Assembly: GCA_017992455.1 (NCBI GenBank)
Contig: JAGOOP010000003.1
Coordinates: 2,696 to 66,695, forward strand
Direction: 5' to 3'
Source of the DNA: Candidatus Omnitrophota bacterium
Lineage (GTDB): Bacteria; Omnitrophota; Gorgyraeia; Gygaellales; Profunditerraquicolaceae
Length of the DNA stretch: 64,000 nucleotides
The notes below the pieces were generated by a model that ran no database searches, was not told where the DNA came from, and worked only from the letters and a program-made list of their open reading frames with translations. How positions within the stretch are numbered: the stretch's first letter is position 1; the number at the start of each line of letters is the position of its first letter. This document shows positions 7,650 through 13,788 of this stretch, piece by piece. Position numbers and translations under genes: made by a program.

Positions 7650-7808
7650 TTCACTCCTCTCTGTTATTATTATAATCTAATATATATTAAATAATCGTTA
7701 TATTCTTAGTGTGTGTGGATTATGTGGAAATCTTTGTAATCCCTATATATTCAACCCTGTTATAAAAAATCAACCACTGGATAACCAGTGTGTTTATTGC
7801 TGGATAAC
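7650..7808. promoter_or_regulatory. Candidate oriC segment in the dnaA-dnaN spacer (AT-rich tract plus DnaA-box-like 9-mers)
   Basis: AT-rich run ttattattataatctaatatatattaaataatcgttatattc at about 7665-7706. Box-like 9-mers are TGTGGATTA (7714-7722), TGTGGAAAT (7723-7731) and CTGGATAAC (7777-7785 and 7800-7808), compared with the reverse consensus TGTGGATAA. Gene orientation diverges around this locus. Confidence 0.55.
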
Positions 7809-9125
7809 CTGTATAATCCTATTGATCTTTTCTTTTAACGCCGAATTGACCAGCAGGTCCTCTTTGATCTTATTGTATGAATGAAGCACGGTTGTATGGT
7901 CTTTACCGCCAAAATGCTCGCCGATCTCGGGAAACGACTGTTCGGTCAACTCCCTGCATAGATACATCGCGACCTGACGGGGCAGTACGATGGTTTTACT
8001 GCGTTTTTTTTGTTTCAGGTCAGCCAGGGAAACGCCGAATTCCTCGACCACGCAGCGCTGGATAAAATCGATCGTAACGAGTTTTTTAGGCTCGCGCAAC
8101 AGGTCTTTGAACACTTCTTTGGCCAGGTCAAGGGTGATCACTTTTTCTTCCATGAGCGCATACGCGATGATGCGCACGAGCGCGCCTTCGAGCTCGCGGA
8201 TGTTCGTCTTGATGAGGGACGCGATGAAAAATATCACGTCGTCGGGGATGCGCACCGGCTCGCGTTCGATCTTTTTCTTGAGAATGGCCACGCGCGTTTC
8301 AAGGTCCGGCGGCTGCACGTCCGTCGTCAGCCCCCAGCTGAAGCGCGACACGAGCCGTTCCTGGAGATTGGCGATCTCTTTGGGGGTCCGGTCAGACGAA
8401 ATAATGATCTGTTTGTGGCTGTCGTACAGGGCATTGAATGTGTGAAAGAACTCTTCCTGGGTCGATTCCTTGCCCGCGATGAAATGGATGTCGTCGAGAA
8501 CGAGCACGTCGACGTTGCGGAATTTCTGGCGGAACGCGGCGGTCGAATGGTGCTGGATCGCGTCGATCAATTCATTGGTGAACCGTTCGGACGGCATATA
8601 ACAAATCCGCATCTGCGGCGACGCCTGCCGGACGTGATGGCAGATCGCTTGCATGAGATGGGATTTGCCCAGCCCCACGCCGCCGTATATGAAAAGCGGA
8701 TTGTAATTCTTGCCCGGCGCCTCGGCGACCGCGACGGAATACGCGTGCGCGTGGCGGTTCGACGGCCCGAGGACAAAATTTTCGAACGTGTAGCGGGGAT
8801 TAAGGGACAGGCTGTCGCGCGGCTCGGCATTGCGCAGTCGGGTCATGTCAAGCGCCGGCTTCATTCCCGCGGACGCCTTTTCCTGCGCCTCGATCGCCAC
8901 GGTCATGTTTTTACCGGACGATCTGCGCACCGCGTCTTCTATGTCCTTGCGGTAATGCTGTTCCACCCAATCCTTGAAAAAGGCATCGGGCGCCTCGAGG
9001 ACGAGCTGAAGGCCTGTGTGCTGTTTCGGTTTGAGCGGGTTGATCCAGGTCTGGATCGCGGTTTCGCCGAGGGTCCCTTTGAGCAGGTCTGCGGCGTCTG
9101 CCCAGATGCGAGATGCGTCTGACAT
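7794..9125 (-). CDS. dnaA: Chromosomal replication initiator DnaA
   Basis: AAA+ motifs YNPLFIYGGVGLGKSHLMQAI and VLVLDDIHF, plus the C-terminal DNA-binding helix FGGKDHTTVLHSYNKI. The longest ORF begins at 9188. I favour ATG at 9125 (MSDASRIWADAADLL...) because 9129-9180 is packed with DnaA-box-like sites. The start remains uncertain. Confidence 0.93.
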   Translation of the reverse strand: MSDASRIWADAADLLKGTLGETAIQTWINPLKPKQHTGLQLVLEAPDAFFKDWVEQHYRKDIEDAVRRSSGKNMTVAIEAQEKASAGMKPALDMTRLRNAEPRDSLSLNPRYTFENFVLGPSNRHAHAYSVAVAEAPGKNYNPLFIYGGVGLGKSHLMQAICHHVRQASPQMRICYMPSERFTNELIDAIQHHSTAAFRQKFRNVDVLVLDDIHFIAGKESTQEEFFHTFNALYDSHKQIIISSDRTPKEIANLQERLVSRFSWGLTTDVQPPDLETRVAILKKKIEREPVRIPDDVIFFIASLIKTNIRELEGALVRIIAYALMEEKVITLDLAKEVFKDLLREPKKLVTIDFIQRCVVEEFGVSLADLKQKKRSKTIVLPRQVAMYLCRELTEQSFPEIGEHFGGKDHTTVLHSYNKIKEDLLVNSALKEKINRIIQVIQQ

Positions 9126-9128
9126 TGT

Positions 9129-9180
9129 GTTATCAACCATATCCACAGAATATTCACAGAGTGAATAACTCTGTGGAAAA
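9129..9180. promoter_or_regulatory. DnaA-box cluster immediately upstream of the preferred dnaA start
   Basis: TTATCAACC (9129-9137), ATATCCACA (9139-9147, 8/9 to TTATCCACA), ATATTCACA (9150-9158) and TGTGGAAAA (9172-9180, reverse TTTTCCACA, 8/9). Confidence 0.5.
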
Positions 9181-9311
9181 CTTTTCATAATAAAAAATTT
9201 CCGAGACTCACGATAGCCTTATTATACAGTAATTTTAACCGCAGTCAACAAAAAACCGGGCTGCGTATTCACGCGCATCTTTTGCCGCGCGCCGTATTTG
9301 ATACGCAACAC

Positions 9312-9796: not shown

Positions 9797-11317
9797 ATGG
9801 AAAAAAGAACAGTACTCGCGATCGCACTATCATTTCTGGTCATATTCTTCTGGTCGAAGTTCGTCTACAAGCCGGAACAGTCGCAGATGCGGTCGTCCGG
9901 CAGCGTTATCAGCTCAGAGCCAAGGCAGGAGCGCATAACACCGGTTACCGCCCCCCTTCTTGCTTCAGAAACCGAACAGGTAGTTACAGCGTATACCATA
10001 CCCGGGGCTGTTATTGAGGTTTCTGAACCGGACGCTGCTATAAAACAGGCAGTTTTTGATAAATATAAGAAGAATAAATATATTTTAAATAACGGACTGT
10101 ATTTAGCAGATCCCGCAGTGAAGTTCGATCAAAAAATAAGCGTAAATGACGGATTTTCATATTTTTATGAAGATACAGCCAAACGCATAACAAAAACGCT
10201 TATTTCAACTAACTCTCATTATGTCATGGAGTTAGAGATAAAAATCACCAACCTCTCCTCTTCTTCTCTTCAACAAGACATTCCTATCATATTGGGAAGA
10301 TTTGACTTAGAAAAAAAGAATGGCGCTGACCAGCGTTTTGACGACATTATTGTCAGCGACCAAAGCAAAATATCACACCCGAGTTTTAAAAAACCAGCGA
10401 CATTCCAGGATATTAAATTCATTGGCATGCGGGATCAATATTTCTGTGCCATTATACAGCCTGAATCCACAGGTTATTCCGGATTTGTGAATAAAGTTTC
10501 TGATAAAGTCTTTGATATTGGAATAGCTTCTGATCGGATAAGCATTCAGCCCGGAAGCGAGATCATTCAACGTTTCAAAATATACCTTGGCCCGCAGGAC
10601 ATCGATGCTCTGAGCAAGGCCAATCCAAGCTGGGGAGCAATTGTATATTTTGGCATGTTCGATATTGTTGCGCAGGTCATACTCGGATTATTAAAGTTTT
10701 TATTTACTATTGTAAAGAATTGGGGCGTTGCTATAATTTTGTTGAGCATAGCTATTTATTTGATATTATTCCCGCTTTCAATTAAGCAAATGAAATCAAT
10801 GAAGGAATTGCAAGTATTGCAGCCAAAAATGGAGCAGTTGCGCAAGCAATACGGTGATAATCAGAAAAAATTGAACGAAGAGATGATGAAGCTGTATAAA
10901 GAGCATAAAGTCAATCCGCTTGGCGGGTGCTTGCCAATGGTGCTTCAGATACCAATATTTATATCATTATACCAGGTGCTGTCACGATCAATAGCTCTTA
11001 AGGGAGCGAAATTTCTCTGGATAAAAGATCTTTCTGAGCCAGACAGGCTTTTTAAGCTGCCATTTGAAATACCTTTCATCGGAGAGTATTTTAATATTTT
11101 GCCGATCTTAATGGCTATTGGGATGTTTATCCAGCAAAAAATGTCGTCTGCAAATGCAACAGGACAGGCTGCAGAGCAGCAGAAGATGATGGTTATAATT
11201 TTTCCGATCATGTTCGGCGTGATGTTTTATAATGTTCCTTCAGGGTTGGTCATGTATTGGTTTTTAAATAGCACGCTGATGCTTTTGTATCAGATCAAGG
11301 TTATGAGATCAAAATGA
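9797..11317 (+). CDS. yidC: Membrane protein insertase YidC
   Basis: 506-aa ORF with an N-terminal TM, a periplasmic domain and the conserved C-terminal 60-kDa-IMP core (WGVAIILLSIAIYLILFPLSIKQMKSMKELQVLQPKMEQLRKQY...KVNPLGGCLPMVLQIPIFISLY...PSGLVMYWFLNSTL). Confidence 0.95.
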   Translation: MEKRTVLAIALSFLVIFFWSKFVYKPEQSQMRSSGSVISSEPRQERITPVTAPLLASETEQVVTAYTIPGAVIEVSEPDAAIKQAVFDKYKKNKYILNNGLYLADPAVKFDQKISVNDGFSYFYEDTAKRITKTLISTNSHYVMELEIKITNLSSSSLQQDIPIILGRFDLEKKNGADQRFDDIIVSDQSKISHPSFKKPATFQDIKFIGMRDQYFCAIIQPESTGYSGFVNKVSDKVFDIGIASDRISIQPGSEIIQRFKIYLGPQDIDALSKANPSWGAIVYFGMFDIVAQVILGLLKFLFTIVKNWGVAIILLSIAIYLILFPLSIKQMKSMKELQVLQPKMEQLRKQYGDNQKKLNEEMMKLYKEHKVNPLGGCLPMVLQIPIFISLYQVLSRSIALKGAKFLWIKDLSEPDRLFKLPFEIPFIGEYFNILPILMAIGMFIQQKMSSANATGQAAEQQKMMVIIFPIMFGVMFYNVPSGLVMYWFLNSTLMLLYQIKVMRSK

Positions 11318-11505
11318 CAGACCAGACTGGCGAAATAGAAGCTGAGGGAAAAACAACAGCAGAGGCGATTAAAAAAGCCCTGAGACAGCTTAAGGCAAAA
11401 AGGGACGATGTTAATATTGAGGTTGTTTGTGAAGAAGAAAAAGGCCTTTTTGGTATGGAAGGCGCAAAAATGGCAAAAGTGAAGGTCAGTCTGAAGCAGA
11501 AATAG
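11314..11505 (+). CDS. Jag_N-domain-only protein (KhpB/Jag N-terminal domain without KH/R3H)
   Basis: 63 aa, GEIEAEGKTTAEAIKKALRQLKAKRDDVNIEVVCEEEKGLFGMEGAKMAKVKV. This matches the Jag N-terminal domain pattern. It overlaps the yidC stop (ATGA) as jag usually does, but no KH or R3H domains follow. Confidence 0.6.
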   Translation: MTDQTGEIEAEGKTTAEAIKKALRQLKAKRDDVNIEVVCEEEKGLFGMEGAKMAKVKVSLKQK

Positions 11506-11513
11506 CCGCAATG

Positions 11514-11650
11514 TTCCCCGTGAAAATGTGCGCGTTTGAACATTTTCACAAAAAAATGTATTGACAAAATTAAGCATCGGCCACATAATAAGGGTTGATA
11601 TCTCCGCATGGTTCCCCGTGAAAATGTGCAATATTGCACATTTTAAGGAG
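11514..11650 (+). promoter_or_regulatory. Promoter flanked by two related palindromic elements upstream of the LAGLIDADG-parA-parB unit
   Basis: Direct repeat TTCCCCGTGAAAATGTGC at 11514-11531 and 11612-11629. Inverted repeat GTGAAAATGT / ACATTTTCAC at 11520-11529 / 11540-11549. Perfect 24-bp palindrome AAAATGTGCAATATTGCACATTTT at 11621-11644. Promoter -35 TTGACA (11561-11566), 17 nt, -10 CATAAT (11584-11589). SD AAGGAG at 11645-11650. Confidence 0.55.
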
Positions 11651-11657
11651 TGCTTAA

Positions 11658-12107
11658 ATGATCGACCCTTGGTATGTGACTGGATTTTGTGACGGAGAAG
11701 CTGCTTTTACATTTAGTCGTGCAGGCGCTTCTTACGCCATTTATTTTGGATTACGACAACGGGCAGATAATGCTCAAATAATTGAAGAAATACACCAGTT
11801 TTTTAACTACGTCGGGCGCTTATATTATTCTAAAGGAGCAGCGCCAACACATAATAGCGGGTTAACACAACCAGCGATATATTATAGGGTGACGAAAAAC
11901 GAAGAACTCCAGGAAATAATCGCTCATTTTGATAAATATCCGTTGCAAAGCTTAAAAAAGCGAGATGCCTACAAGATTTGGCGCGAAATGGTGATTTATA
12001 AGAAAGATCATTATCGAGATATTGATTATGATACGATTAGGAGGCTCGCCGATTCTTTGTCTCAGGCGAATTCAAAGAGCAGGGTTTATAAACGTCACAC
12101 TAGATAA
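11658..12107 (+). CDS. Single-motif LAGLIDADG homing-endonuclease-family protein (free-standing)
   Basis: 149 aa. The N-terminal WYVTGFCDGEAAFTF is a LAGLIDADG motif with an acidic residue at the catalytic position, and the size matches homodimeric I-CreI-type enzymes. Its stop TAA overlaps the parA ATG (TAATG at 12105-12109). The gene is visibly AT-richer than its neighbours. Confidence 0.8.
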   Translation: MIDPWYVTGFCDGEAAFTFSRAGASYAIYFGLRQRADNAQIIEEIHQFFNYVGRLYYSKGAAPTHNSGLTQPAIYYRVTKNEELQEIIAHFDKYPLQSLKKRDAYKIWREMVIYKKDHYRDIDYDTIRRLADSLSQANSKSRVYKRHTR

Positions 12108-12928
12108 TGAGTAAGGTATTTGCGATTTGTAATCAGAAGGGCGGCACTGGCAAAACAACGTCGGCAATTAATATTGCCGCCTATATGGCATTGGCAGGAA
12201 AGAGGGTGCTGCTTGTAGATCTTGATCCACAGGCGAATGCAACAAGCGGCGTTGGTATTGACCGGCATCAGATAAAGCAGAGCACATACCACATACTTCT
12301 CGAGGAACTCAGCGTCGGGGAGATAATCCAAAAAACAGCCATCCCGAATCTATTCCTTGCTCCGGCAAACCTGGATCTGACCGGAGCCGAGGTCGAATTG
12401 GTCAGCGCTCTCGGCCGCGAATACCGTCTTAAAAAATCCCTTGCTGCGGTCCGCGCCGAATATGACTTTATCATTATCGACTCTCCGCCGTCATTGGGCC
12501 TTCTGACCATAAACTCGCTTTCCGCAGCTGATTCGATCCTGATCCCTGTGCAATGCGAATATTACGCGCTCGAGGGGCTGACACAGTTGAATAACACGTT
12601 TAACCTGGTGAAAAACAATCTGAATCAGGGGTTGGCCATACAAGGCGTTATTCTTACCATGGCTGACTTCAGGACAAACCTGACAAAAGAAGTCATCAAC
12701 GAAGTCAAAAAGAATTTTCCAGGCCACGTATATGATACGGTTATACCGAGGAGCATTAGACTGAGCGAAGCTCCGAGTTATGGCAAGCCAATAGCGATAT
12801 ACGACAAAGACAACATCGGCGCTAAAAAATACGAGCAATTGACAATGGAGATTTTAGGAAGCACAACCGTATCATCAGATAAAAATTTTGATACGGTTAT
12901 GCATGAACCACAGTCACAGGAGGCTTGA
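12107..12928 (+). CDS. parA: Chromosome partitioning ATPase ParA/Soj
   Basis: 273 aa. Deviant Walker A NQKGGTGKTTSAINIAAY, plus VLLVDLDPQANAT and IIIDSPPSLGLLT. Confidence 0.93.
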   Translation: MSKVFAICNQKGGTGKTTSAINIAAYMALAGKRVLLVDLDPQANATSGVGIDRHQIKQSTYHILLEELSVGEIIQKTAIPNLFLAPANLDLTGAEVELVSALGREYRLKKSLAAVRAEYDFIIIDSPPSLGLLTINSLSAADSILIPVQCEYYALEGLTQLNNTFNLVKNNLNQGLAIQGVILTMADFRTNLTKEVINEVKKNFPGHVYDTVIPRSIRLSEAPSYGKPIAIYDKDNIGAKKYEQLTMEILGSTTVSSDKNFDTVMHEPQSQEA

Positions 12929-13788
12929 AGATCATGGAACATAGAGCGCTTGGCAAGGGCCTGAATGCTTTGATACCGGAATCGCCGCAGGAAAAGGGAT
13001 CGCGCGTTTTAACGTTAAGCGTTACTCAGATCAAGCCAAATCCGTTTCAGCCAAGAGAGAATTTCAGCCAGGAAGAAATGGCTGAGCTGGTCGGTTCGAT
13101 CAGGGAAAAGGGTGTTATACAGCCCGTGCTTGTCAGGGCGCGGCCTGACGGTTATGAGTTGATCGCAGGAGAGCGCAGACTGCGCGCTGCCCGGATGCTT
13201 AATATGCAGGAGATCCCGGCGATCATAAAAGATGTTGATGACAAGGATTCTCTGGAGCTGGCATTGATCGAGAATATTCAGCGGCAGAACCTGAACGCGA
13301 TCGAAGAAGCGCGCGCATACCAGTATCTCATTGACAAATATCAGATGACCCAGGATGAGCTGAGCCAGGTCATGGGCAGGGCGCGCGTATCGGTAACGAA
13401 TGTGCTTCGTTTGCTCAAGCTTCCCAGGGAGATACAGGACGAGATCAAGAGCGGCCGCATTTCATTCGGCCACGGCAGGGCATTGCTTGAAGTGAACGAT
13501 GAGAACAGGCAGAGATTTTTGACGCAGATAGCCATTTCTAAGTCGTTGTCTGTAAGAGAGTTAGAGAGTCTTATCAAGAATTTACGGCCGCGCAAAAACA
13601 AGCTTACCGTGAAGATGGGCACTGTTGATCCGGTAGTGGCTGTGCTTGAGACCCAGCTGCAGCAGGCCCTGGCGACAAAGGTGAAGATCGTCAAAAGGAA
13701 AAAAAGGGGCCACATCGTTATCGAGTTTTATTCCCAGGAGGACCTGGAGCGCATCGTTGACAAACTACGAGGAGAAACGAACACATGA
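12925..13788 (+). CDS. parB: Chromosome partitioning protein ParB/Spo0J
   Basis: 287 aa. ParB box IKPNPFQPRENF, GVIQPVLVR, ELIAGERRLRAA and HTH region MTQDELSQVMGRARVSVTNVLRLLKLP. Confidence 0.93.
   Translation: MKIMEHRALGKGLNALIPESPQEKGSRVLTLSVTQIKPNPFQPRENFSQEEMAELVGSIREKGVIQPVLVRARPDGYELIAGERRLRAARMLNMQEIPAIIKDVDDKDSLELALIENIQRQNLNAIEEARAYQYLIDKYQMTQDELSQVMGRARVSVTNVLRLLKLPREIQDEIKSGRISFGHGRALLEVNDENRQRFLTQIAISKSLSVRELESLIKNLRPRKNKLTVKMGTVDPVVAVLETQLQQALATKVKIVKRKKRGHIVIEFYSQEDLERIVDKLRGETNT

Follow-up and report, generated by a model that had tools for sequence, protein, structure and literature searches.

Homodimeric LAGLIDADG homing endonucleases recognize targets composed of two half-sites around a variable 4-bp center, and LAGLIDADG enzymes cut within these central four bases. 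WhiA (DUF199), found in Gram-positive bacteria, is a ∼330-aa monomer that has lost the catalytic residues and combines two degenerate LAGLIDADG domains with a helix-turn-helix (HTH) domain at its C terminus doing most of the binding. Plasmid systems routinely autoregulate their par operon by means of a site upstream of it. Among described endonuclease-family regulators, I-TevI represses its own promoter via an operator that resembles its homing site and is cleaved ∼100-fold less well (PMC2988022), and the LAGLIDADG-derived WhiA binds the parABp2 promoter as well as its own (PMC3240954). Here we describe a LAGLIDADG gene and an accompanying palindromic element in a 64,000-nt stretch of a Candidatus Omnitrophota genome (GenBank assembly GCA_017992455.1, contig JAGOOP010000003.1, positions 2,696–66,695 of the forward strand; hereafter the window), in which the gene encodes a 149-aa protein and lies directly upstream of the segregation genes parA and parB.

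We consider it somewhat probable that this putatively homodimeric LAGLIDADG protein, now the product of a resident host gene, binds a site at its own promoter and autoregulates the par operon. The homodimer would bind a pseudo-palindromic core, AAAAwGTkyc-N4-grAACAyTTT, in its own promoter or leader; in the window, two such sites (11520–11549 and 11621–11644) would flank the promoter at 11561–11589. Occupancy of the sites would repress transcription from this promoter. With parA translationally coupled to the gene and parB next in line, the resulting negative feedback would determine how strongly the entire segregation operon is expressed. If the protein still cuts some DNA, the site at its own gene would be a variant that is bound but left uncut, as with the I-TevI operator. 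Homodimer formation, occupancy of the palindrome by this protein instead of ParB, and repression as the outcome of occupancy are what we infer.

The LAGLIDADG gene (11658–12107, plus strand) heads the parA-parB unit, and its TAA (12105–12107) overlaps the parA ATG (12107–12109) in a TAATG stop/start junction (12105–12109), by which the two genes are predicted to be translationally coupled. Upstream, a predicted sigma-70-type promoter, TTGACA-17-CATAAT (11561–11589, plus strand, 11/12 consensus match), lies between two plus-strand copies of the element recognized by repeat analysis and a parS scan. The distal copy (11512–11549) consists of a parS-like 16-mer, TGTTCCCCGTGAAAAT (11512–11527), and a split inverted repeat upstream of the −35 box, GTGAAAATGT-N10-ACATTTTCAC, with arms at 11520–11529 and 11540–11549. 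The proximal copy (11610–11644), our proposed operator, consists of the 16-mer GGTTCCCCGTGAAAAT (11610–11625) and a perfect 24-bp palindrome, AAAATGTGCAATATTGCACATTTT (11621–11644); it falls at approximately +14 to +48 of the predicted transcript, and a Shine-Dalgarno (SD) sequence read from the sequence, AAGGAG (11645–11650, plus strand), abuts the palindrome 7 nt before the ATG. Both copies belong to a 48-nt repeat (11499–11546 and 11597–11644, 79% identical) whose core is an 18-nt direct repeat (11514–11531 and 11612–11629).

A first-pass annotation of this DNA had described a 149-aa single-motif LAGLIDADG gene at the head of the parA-parB unit with its stop codon overlapping the parA start, a promoter flanked by two related palindromes, an 18-nt direct repeat seeding both palindromes, and a 12/16 match of TGTTCCCCGTGAAAAT to parS. 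All of these were recovered at the same positions, and the parS match rises to 13/16 if position 5 is taken as N. Its perfect 24-bp palindrome was also found, but the perfection is specific to this genome, and the unit conserved among relatives is TGTTCCnCGTGAAAAwGT-N10-ACAyTTT. With up to two mismatches allowed, AAAATGT-N10-ACATTTT has 2 sites in the 64 kb, both at this locus, against 0.24 expected, and 2 of 100 shuffles reach that count; these figures rule out chance or a generic repeat, the latter raised in the same annotation, as the origin of the palindromes. Compared by eye, a DnaA box or a LexA box matched the motif poorly or had its half-sites in the wrong order. An additional 18-nt inverted repeat, 83% complementary, connects the −10 region (11582–11599) with the first LAGLIDADG codons (11661–11678) and is probably due to chance.

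The gene is a fixed part of this locus throughout the Omnitrophota sampled. A word-indexed homologue search returned 261 clusters at 90% identity; among the matches listed, the proteins were 147–167 aa long (most exactly 149) and 57–79% identical, and the named clusters were all metagenome-assembled genomes of Candidatus Omnitrophota or Omnitrophica. In a 50%-identity library the Omnitrophota clade shrinks to two or three representatives, and a gap parts it from other single-motif relatives of 130–200 aa. The arrangement jagN-promoter-site-LAGLIDADG-parA-parB was present in 24 of 24 independent Omnitrophota loci examined, so the jag-X-parA synteny proposed as a check in the first-pass annotation holds in every one (X, the LAGLIDADG homologue). 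The longer order yidC-jagN-X-parA-parB-ndk-yicC-gmk-rpoZ was seen in every readable Omnitrophota locus, including loci L001–L010, and a member only 46% identical (L137) has the same yidC-to-rpoZ order. Fifteen further syntenic Omnitrophota loci came from a motif scan and carry X wherever enough downstream sequence is available. A scan of genome contigs with the single protein yielded two loci only, peptide patterns being too specific.

Pairwise identities of X follow those of its neighbors (r 0.81 with ParA and 0.76 with ParB, compared with 0.87 between ParA and ParB), and mean identity is 68%, 80%, and 75% for X, ParA, and ParB, respectively. The ratio of nonsynonymous to synonymous substitution rates (dN/dS) of X was 0.08–0.13 in pairs with unsaturated dS. 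The TAATG overlap is kept in 10 of the 16 loci compared, the rest having a short 3′ extension or a gap (68 nt in L137). Because of the fixed synteny, the identity tracking ParA and ParB, and the low dN/dS, we conclude from these comparisons that X is vertically inherited under strong purifying selection on its amino-acid sequence, beyond what keeping a mere open frame would require. The first-pass annotation had spoken of a selfish-endonuclease-family gene; vertical inheritance and dN/dS of 0.08–0.13 leave no sign of selfish behavior here, and within the Omnitrophota loci examined we saw neither patchy spread nor several insertion sites nor residence in an intron, an intein, or mobile DNA. Relatives of X were sought in plasmids and viral contigs and none were found, and the sole match of a phage search was a remote one (33% identity) inside a methyltransferase gene.

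The element accompanies the gene in these relatives. It can be described as a pseudo-palindrome with 7-nt arms and an asymmetric 11-nt extension on one side, and it was present in every locus retrieved through the protein, a sample unbiased for the motif; the palindrome is thus retained in all relatives that keep the gene, a point on which the first-pass annotation had made its idea depend. The ATG in relatives lies 39–63 nt past the start of the element, and a TTGACA-16/17-GATAAT promoter ending 17–32 nt before the element was found in 19 of 20 distinct Omnitrophota loci whose upstream sequence was long enough, among them all those retrieved through the protein. Alignment of 32 elements gave 14 invariant columns, nearly all on the left side, with A, C, G, or T at position 7. 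The arms AAAAwGT and ACAyTTT are symmetric, 68.5% of cells pairing as compared with 33–47% for slid partners. A second copy upstream of the −35 box occurs in L058, as in the window. The arm variants AAAAAGT and AAAATGT sort essentially one clade, and the LAGLIDADG columns that separate them lie outside the beta-sheet and are hence uninformative.

Two loci show elaborated forms of the element. L014 (2485–2680) has two tandem units of a GATAAT −10 box plus element before the LAGLIDADG start, with a full −35/−10 match for the first only, a duplication of promoter and site that contrasts with the one promoter and two sites of the window. In L001 (3937–3984) the element has grown to a 48-bp near-perfect palindrome, ATGTTCCGCGTGAAAATGTtCCAGCTGGcACATTTTCACGCGGAACAT, which contains both parS-like 16-mers in inverted orientation.

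Outside the par operon, the element was again found beside members of the same protein family. A metagenome scan with the left-hand 18-mer TGTTCCnCGTGAAAAwGT gave, among the 80 matches listed, at least 15 Omnitrophota loci and at least five high-GC (guanine plus cytosine) loci in which a 41–46%-identical LAGLIDADG homologue follows the motif; neither parA nor jagN was detected in these five. Approximately 59 of the 80 listed matches were unrelated, either chance matches in coding sequence or, when n = A, apparent parS-like sites of other taxa, and none of these had the second palindrome or a LAGLIDADG gene. The core GAAAATGTTCC-N4-GGAACATTTTC stands directly upstream of homologues only 39–48% identical, in other gene contexts. 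One of these is the order bioF-bioA-bioD-X-udg-gidB, seen in L011 and L077. Open reading frames (ORFs) read in L077 and L023 identify the neighbors as the biotin-synthesis genes bioF, bioA, and bioD, together with udg and gidB; in L023 X is convergent with gidB, and L020 and L044 share its motif-X arrangement. The site in L011 (bioD-X-udg-gidB) is TGTTTCACATGAAAATGTTCC-CATG-GAAACATTTTCA. L020, L023, and L044 each carry two inverted copies, of which the distal one overlaps the predicted −10 box. L132, beside a xerC/D-like gene, has a perfect 11+4+11 palindrome, GAAAATGTTCC-TATG-GGAACATTTTC, and the low-GC L133 and L134, where X is next to a tRNA, have two degenerate copies. In L136 the gene order is gidA-gidB-X-parA-parB-bactofilin with X on the other strand, and the element occupies the 56 bp that separate the start codons of the divergent parA and X. 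The 796-kb contig of L135 has many fragmented genes (dnaA of 260 aa, a split yidC, and an ATP synthase gamma of 122 aa), which suggests indel errors, and its degenerate site, ATGTTTC-ATCC-GAAACAT, may be partly an assembly artifact.

Across these lineages the asymmetric part of the element flips in orientation, and the site can precede, overlap, or follow the promoter, always beside the LAGLIDADG family; in Omnitrophota it falls at +14 to +48, and in L132 and L023 the GAAAAT of the motif is itself the predicted −10 box. The distribution indicates that the element accompanies the LAGLIDADG gene rather than parAB. Such freedom of placement around the promoter, with both orientations in use, is the behavior expected of a protein-binding DNA operator and not of an RNA. 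The inverted repeat could instead act as an RNA hairpin in the 5′ leader, affecting mRNA stability, attenuation, or access to the SD without any protein reading the DNA, and some features fit: the proximal copy is transcribed in Omnitrophota if the predicted promoter is correct, the window leader (11596–11665) has a predicted fold of −19.4 kcal/mol (z −2.5) that pairs the SD, and there is a slight compensatory excess at the center of the palindrome. That covariation is weak, however (7 of 500 shuffles reach the score), and we gave it no weight in favor of an RNA helix. The arms show conservation and not covariation, the asymmetric extension keeps its sequence while its orientation flips between lineages, the copies upstream of the −35 box (window and L058) or on the predicted −10 box (L132 and L023) would fall outside the mRNA, and an Rfam search gave no match. 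We regard a hairpin function as very improbable. The leader pairing joins CUCC (11602–11605) to the GGAG of the SD around the palindrome hairpin; it may be specific to the window, as most relatives have no obvious SD.

With one motif per chain and a length of 149 aa, the protein itself is a candidate member of the homodimeric single-motif subclass of LAGLIDADG enzymes, whose chains have ∼150–170 aa and whose targets are palindromic or pseudo-palindromic and ∼22 bp long. It starts with MIDPWYVTGFCDGEAAFTF and matches Pfam PF00961 (LAGLIDADG_1) at E 3.4e-12, with 47.6 bits against a cut-off of 23.1, over residues 8–111 (profile positions 2–101 of 102), in line with the family originally assigned to it. 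Searched with phmmer, entries of the PDB gave I-GzeII, I-CpaMI, I-AabMI, and the I-OnuI series (E 1e-9 to 1e-12), and the N-terminal WYVTGFCDGEAAF aligns with their GFTDAEGSF motif. An AlphaFold2 model built from 38 homologues (mean predicted local distance difference test, pLDDT, 87.9) has an alpha-beta-beta-alpha-beta-beta-alpha core, with predicted helices (H) and strands (E) at H4–14, E15–22, E25–35, H36–48, E54–58, E73–78, and H81–93. Foldseek found 121 matches to this model in the PDB at E ≤ 0.001; the best 50 of the 121 are all LAGLIDADG enzymes, and the match to the homodimeric I-TnaI extends over the whole chain (template modeling score, TM, 0.70).

Residues E14, Q34, N38, K100, and K101 are invariant in the 38 Omnitrophota homologues, with L071 as the exception at E14, and so are the predicted beta-sheet residues F17, R21, F30, Y56, Y75, and R77. 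In 18 sequences of the wider family E14 and K100 are invariant, and the predicted DNA-facing beta-sheet is largely conserved across clades (F17, T18, F30, Y56, and R77 invariant). Alignment with hhalign places E14, the acidic residue of the LAGLIDADG motif, at D20 of I-CreI, Q34 at Q47, and N38 at R51, so that the catalytic acidic residue which the first-pass annotation proposed to verify is kept; manual alignment puts K100 at the position of I-CreI K98. With E14, Q34, and K100 kept, the active site looks intact. The protein may therefore still nick or cut some DNA.

The L071 orthologue (ORF at ∼641–231, minus strand) reads GFCDAGAAF, with E14 replaced by G, and also lacks ∼12 residues of the beta3-beta4 loop. 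Despite the loss of E14, L071 keeps the gene, a near-perfect palindrome (AAAATGTGCCAACTGGCACATTTT), and the jagN-X-parA order, which hints that binding is perhaps more important than catalysis. The element consists of two inverted half-sites of 7–11 bp around a variable 4-bp center. We favor the LAGLIDADG protein as the binder because of this half-site layout, the conserved predicted DNA-facing sheet, and the retention of the site in L071.

The intact-looking active site also bears on the idea that the protein is still mainly an active homing endonuclease with its target elsewhere, in which case the upstream site would serve to limit its own toxic expression and the protein would have no par role beyond a shared transcript. 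The wider family retains the catalytic-type residues E14, Q34, and K100, I-TevI is a precedent for self-limiting endonuclease expression, and the family occurs in several unrelated gene contexts across phyla, from which its past mobility is likely. In Omnitrophota, by contrast, the gene occupies one fixed locus and diverges congruently with ParA and ParB, and the searches gave no relatives in plasmids or viral contigs and, in phages, only the remote methyltransferase-gene match. A homing gene fixed at its only site would also be expected to decay, yet dN/dS is ∼0.1. On these grounds we judge a mainly homing function improbable.

Several points weigh against autoregulation by a homodimer. Conservation is much stronger in the left arm and the 11-nt extension than in the right arm, not what one would expect of a symmetric homodimer, and this suggests reading of the left side by a second factor; for the 15 Omnitrophota loci that were retrieved with the motif itself, left-arm conservation is circular. 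With the exception of L071, Omnitrophota sequences all keep E14, Q34, and K100, residues whose loss would be expected in a pure repressor and did occur in WhiA. The synteny sample consists of loci found via the protein or via the motif, and Omnitrophota genomes without the gene possibly lie outside it. The extension and left arm are moreover parS-like, and the 64 kb around dnaA contains no better parS candidate.

The last of these points belongs with a different account, given as an alternative in the first-pass annotation, in which the element is a divergent parS bound by ParB. ParB would then regulate the operon, and the LAGLIDADG gene would be a long-resident homing gene that once homed near parS and persists between the promoter and the coupled parA. 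The 16-mer TGTTCCnCGTGAAAAw matches parS at 12–15 of 16 positions (15/16 in L006), no better candidate was found within 10 kb on either side in L008–L010, L135, and L136, and the gene family sits repeatedly beside parA or gidB, the usual neighborhood of parS. Plasmid par systems likewise have, as a standard feature, a centromere upstream of the operon that also serves as its operator.

The finer structure of the element fits ParB less well. In ParB orthologues R173, in contact with G1 of each half-site, and G201 never vary, and the other base used for discrimination is that at position 6 (PMC7383237). R173 and G201 both have canonical equivalents in the window ParB, and its DNA-reading residues, GRAR...GHGR (GxxR...GHxR), align with those of the Thermus thermophilus, Helicobacter pylori, Bacillus subtilis, and Myxococcus xanthus proteins. 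Despite this canonical-looking ParB, the canonical parS, TGTTNCACGTGAAACA, has no match with ≤2 mismatches in the 64 kb around dnaA, and the window sites differ from it, with its G1 and A6 in both halves, at 3–4 positions. The right half has T in place of the G1 contacted by R173 in 32 of 32 aligned elements, and position 6 of the left half is not fixed as A; in the 16-mer, any of the four bases can stand at position 7, whereas the mirror position never varies. What stays with the gene in all contexts is the second palindrome, with a center that is variable and not CACGTG. Nor can maintenance of a frame for coupling explain dN/dS of ∼0.1 with invariant beta-sheet and active-site residues. Of the earlier ParB alternative, the parS-like 12/16 match stands, and the asymmetry, the four-base position, and the missing G1 and A6 weaken it; we find it doubtful as a full explanation, although ParB may read the asymmetric extension, or both proteins may share a composite site.

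A further possibility, to which we give a comparably low weight, is that the family recognizes the centromere itself, as a nuclease lineage that homed on parS and was co-opted in Omnitrophota as a third, DNA-reading component of ParABS. parS is among the most conserved bacterial non-coding sequences. The core TGTTyC-N4-GrAACA shares the 6+4+6 architecture and nearly the same arms with parS, TGTTTC-ACGT-GAAACA, and differs mainly in the central four bases; the half-sites would then be (AAAA)TGTTyC and GrAACA(TTTT). Repeated residence beside parA or gidB together with the parS-like arms leads to the speculation that an ancestral nuclease targeted parS. If so, this would explain why the family recurs next to parA and gidB, and the co-opted protein could, for example, compete or cooperate with ParB at an overlapping composite site, or exclude foreign replicons that carry a canonical parS.

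Autoregulation by the LAGLIDADG protein remains the best fit among the readings tested. The first-pass annotation had taken the 24-mer for the protein's own binding or cleavage site and proposed autoregulation or domestication as a par repressor; the synteny, the kept site, and the core beside distant homologues elsewhere agree with that proposal, the selfishness and the perfect 24-mer had to be given up, and the catalytic residues are intact.

The surroundings of the gene in the window are origin-proximal, in the order dnaA (7794–9188, minus strand), yidC (9797–11317, plus strand), jagN, LAGLIDADG gene, parA, parB, ndk, yicC, gmk, and rpoZ, with dnaA and yidC identified from Pfam and ORF calls. 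jagN (11314–11505, plus strand) overlaps the end of yidC and encodes 63 aa with only a Jag_N domain (Pfam E 1.5e-18), lacking the KH and R3H domains of full-length Jag. parA (12107–12928, plus strand) encodes a Soj-type ATPase of 273 aa without an N-terminal HTH (Pfam AAA_31, CbiA, MipZ, and ParA), and parB (12925–13788, plus strand) a protein of 287 aa with ParB_N, HTH_ParB, and ParB_C domains.

Gene calls for the window, L001–L010, and L137 have Jag cut down to its N-terminal domain (63–79 aa), and the mnmE-gidA-gidB block usual between jag and parA is absent at the Omnitrophota loci examined; full-length Jag and the mnmE-gidA-gidB block are both present in the non-Omnitrophota L136. A deletion may have accompanied insertion of the LAGLIDADG cassette. 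Conventional mobile elements also occur nearby in some genomes. In L009 (1–1866) gyrA carries an intein with a LAGLIDADG_3 domain, a separate and conventional selfish element ∼8 kb from the par-linked gene, and transposase genes of insertion sequence (IS) families lie beside the dnaA/yidC region in L004 (1–25) and L010 (4692–6146). Synteny is broken on the dnaA side in L010, where the yidC-to-rpoZ block is intact.

Set beside the described systems, the locus combines features of each. Like I-TevI, the protein belongs to an endonuclease family and has a candidate site at its own promoter, here a palindrome over or just after the promoter with a variable central 4 bp. I-TevI, however, is a mobile, intron-encoded protein of phage T4 and of the GIY-YIG superfamily, whereas the protein described here is chromosomal, free-standing, fixed in the Omnitrophota loci examined, and shares an operon with housekeeping genes. 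With I-CreI, I-MsoI, I-CeuI, and I-TnaI it has in common size, single motif, fold, and the acidic residue and Gln, and its putative site likewise consists of inverted half-sites with a 4-bp center; those enzymes are mobile and encoded in rRNA-gene introns, whereas this one is free-standing, vertically inherited, and closer by sequence to the I-OnuI/I-GzeII branch.

The likeness to WhiA is that of a LAGLIDADG scaffold recruited for regulation, a precedent that leads from the fold to par control. Unlike WhiA, the present protein is a single domain of 149 aa with one motif and no HTH, matches LAGLIDADG_1 and none of the WhiA families in Pfam, and keeps the catalytic-type residues E14, Q34, and K100. 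The element resembles parS and the sites of plasmid par operons in being a palindrome with TGTTyC and GrAACA arms in a 6+4+6 arrangement immediately upstream of parA-parB. It differs in matching parS at only 12–13 of 16 positions in the window, where the right arm of one 16-mer is degenerate and the center of the other is not CACGTG, and plasmid par operons differ in that an extra, unrelated protein is encoded here between site and parA. The first-pass annotation had called the arrangement undescribed, and our full-text literature search indeed found no LAGLIDADG gene described in a par operon or in Omnitrophota; only WhiA surfaced.

Together, the sequence comparisons suggest an endonuclease-family protein with a predicted operator at its own promoter that has been recruited to host regulation. 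All parts are short enough for synthesis and in vitro study despite the lack of cultured organisms, and the resemblance of the site to parS provides a testable idea, that of a selfish nuclease that exploited the centromere system and was then absorbed by it. To our knowledge, few bacterial cases exist in which a homing-endonuclease scaffold has been taken up for a host function, WhiA being the main one; the Omnitrophota protein is a second, independent candidate, with an intact-looking active site, a candidate DNA site, and a place within a segregation operon. Chromosomal parAB operons are not, as far as we know, generally known to have a dedicated regulator, and this protein, if it acts as proposed, would add one.

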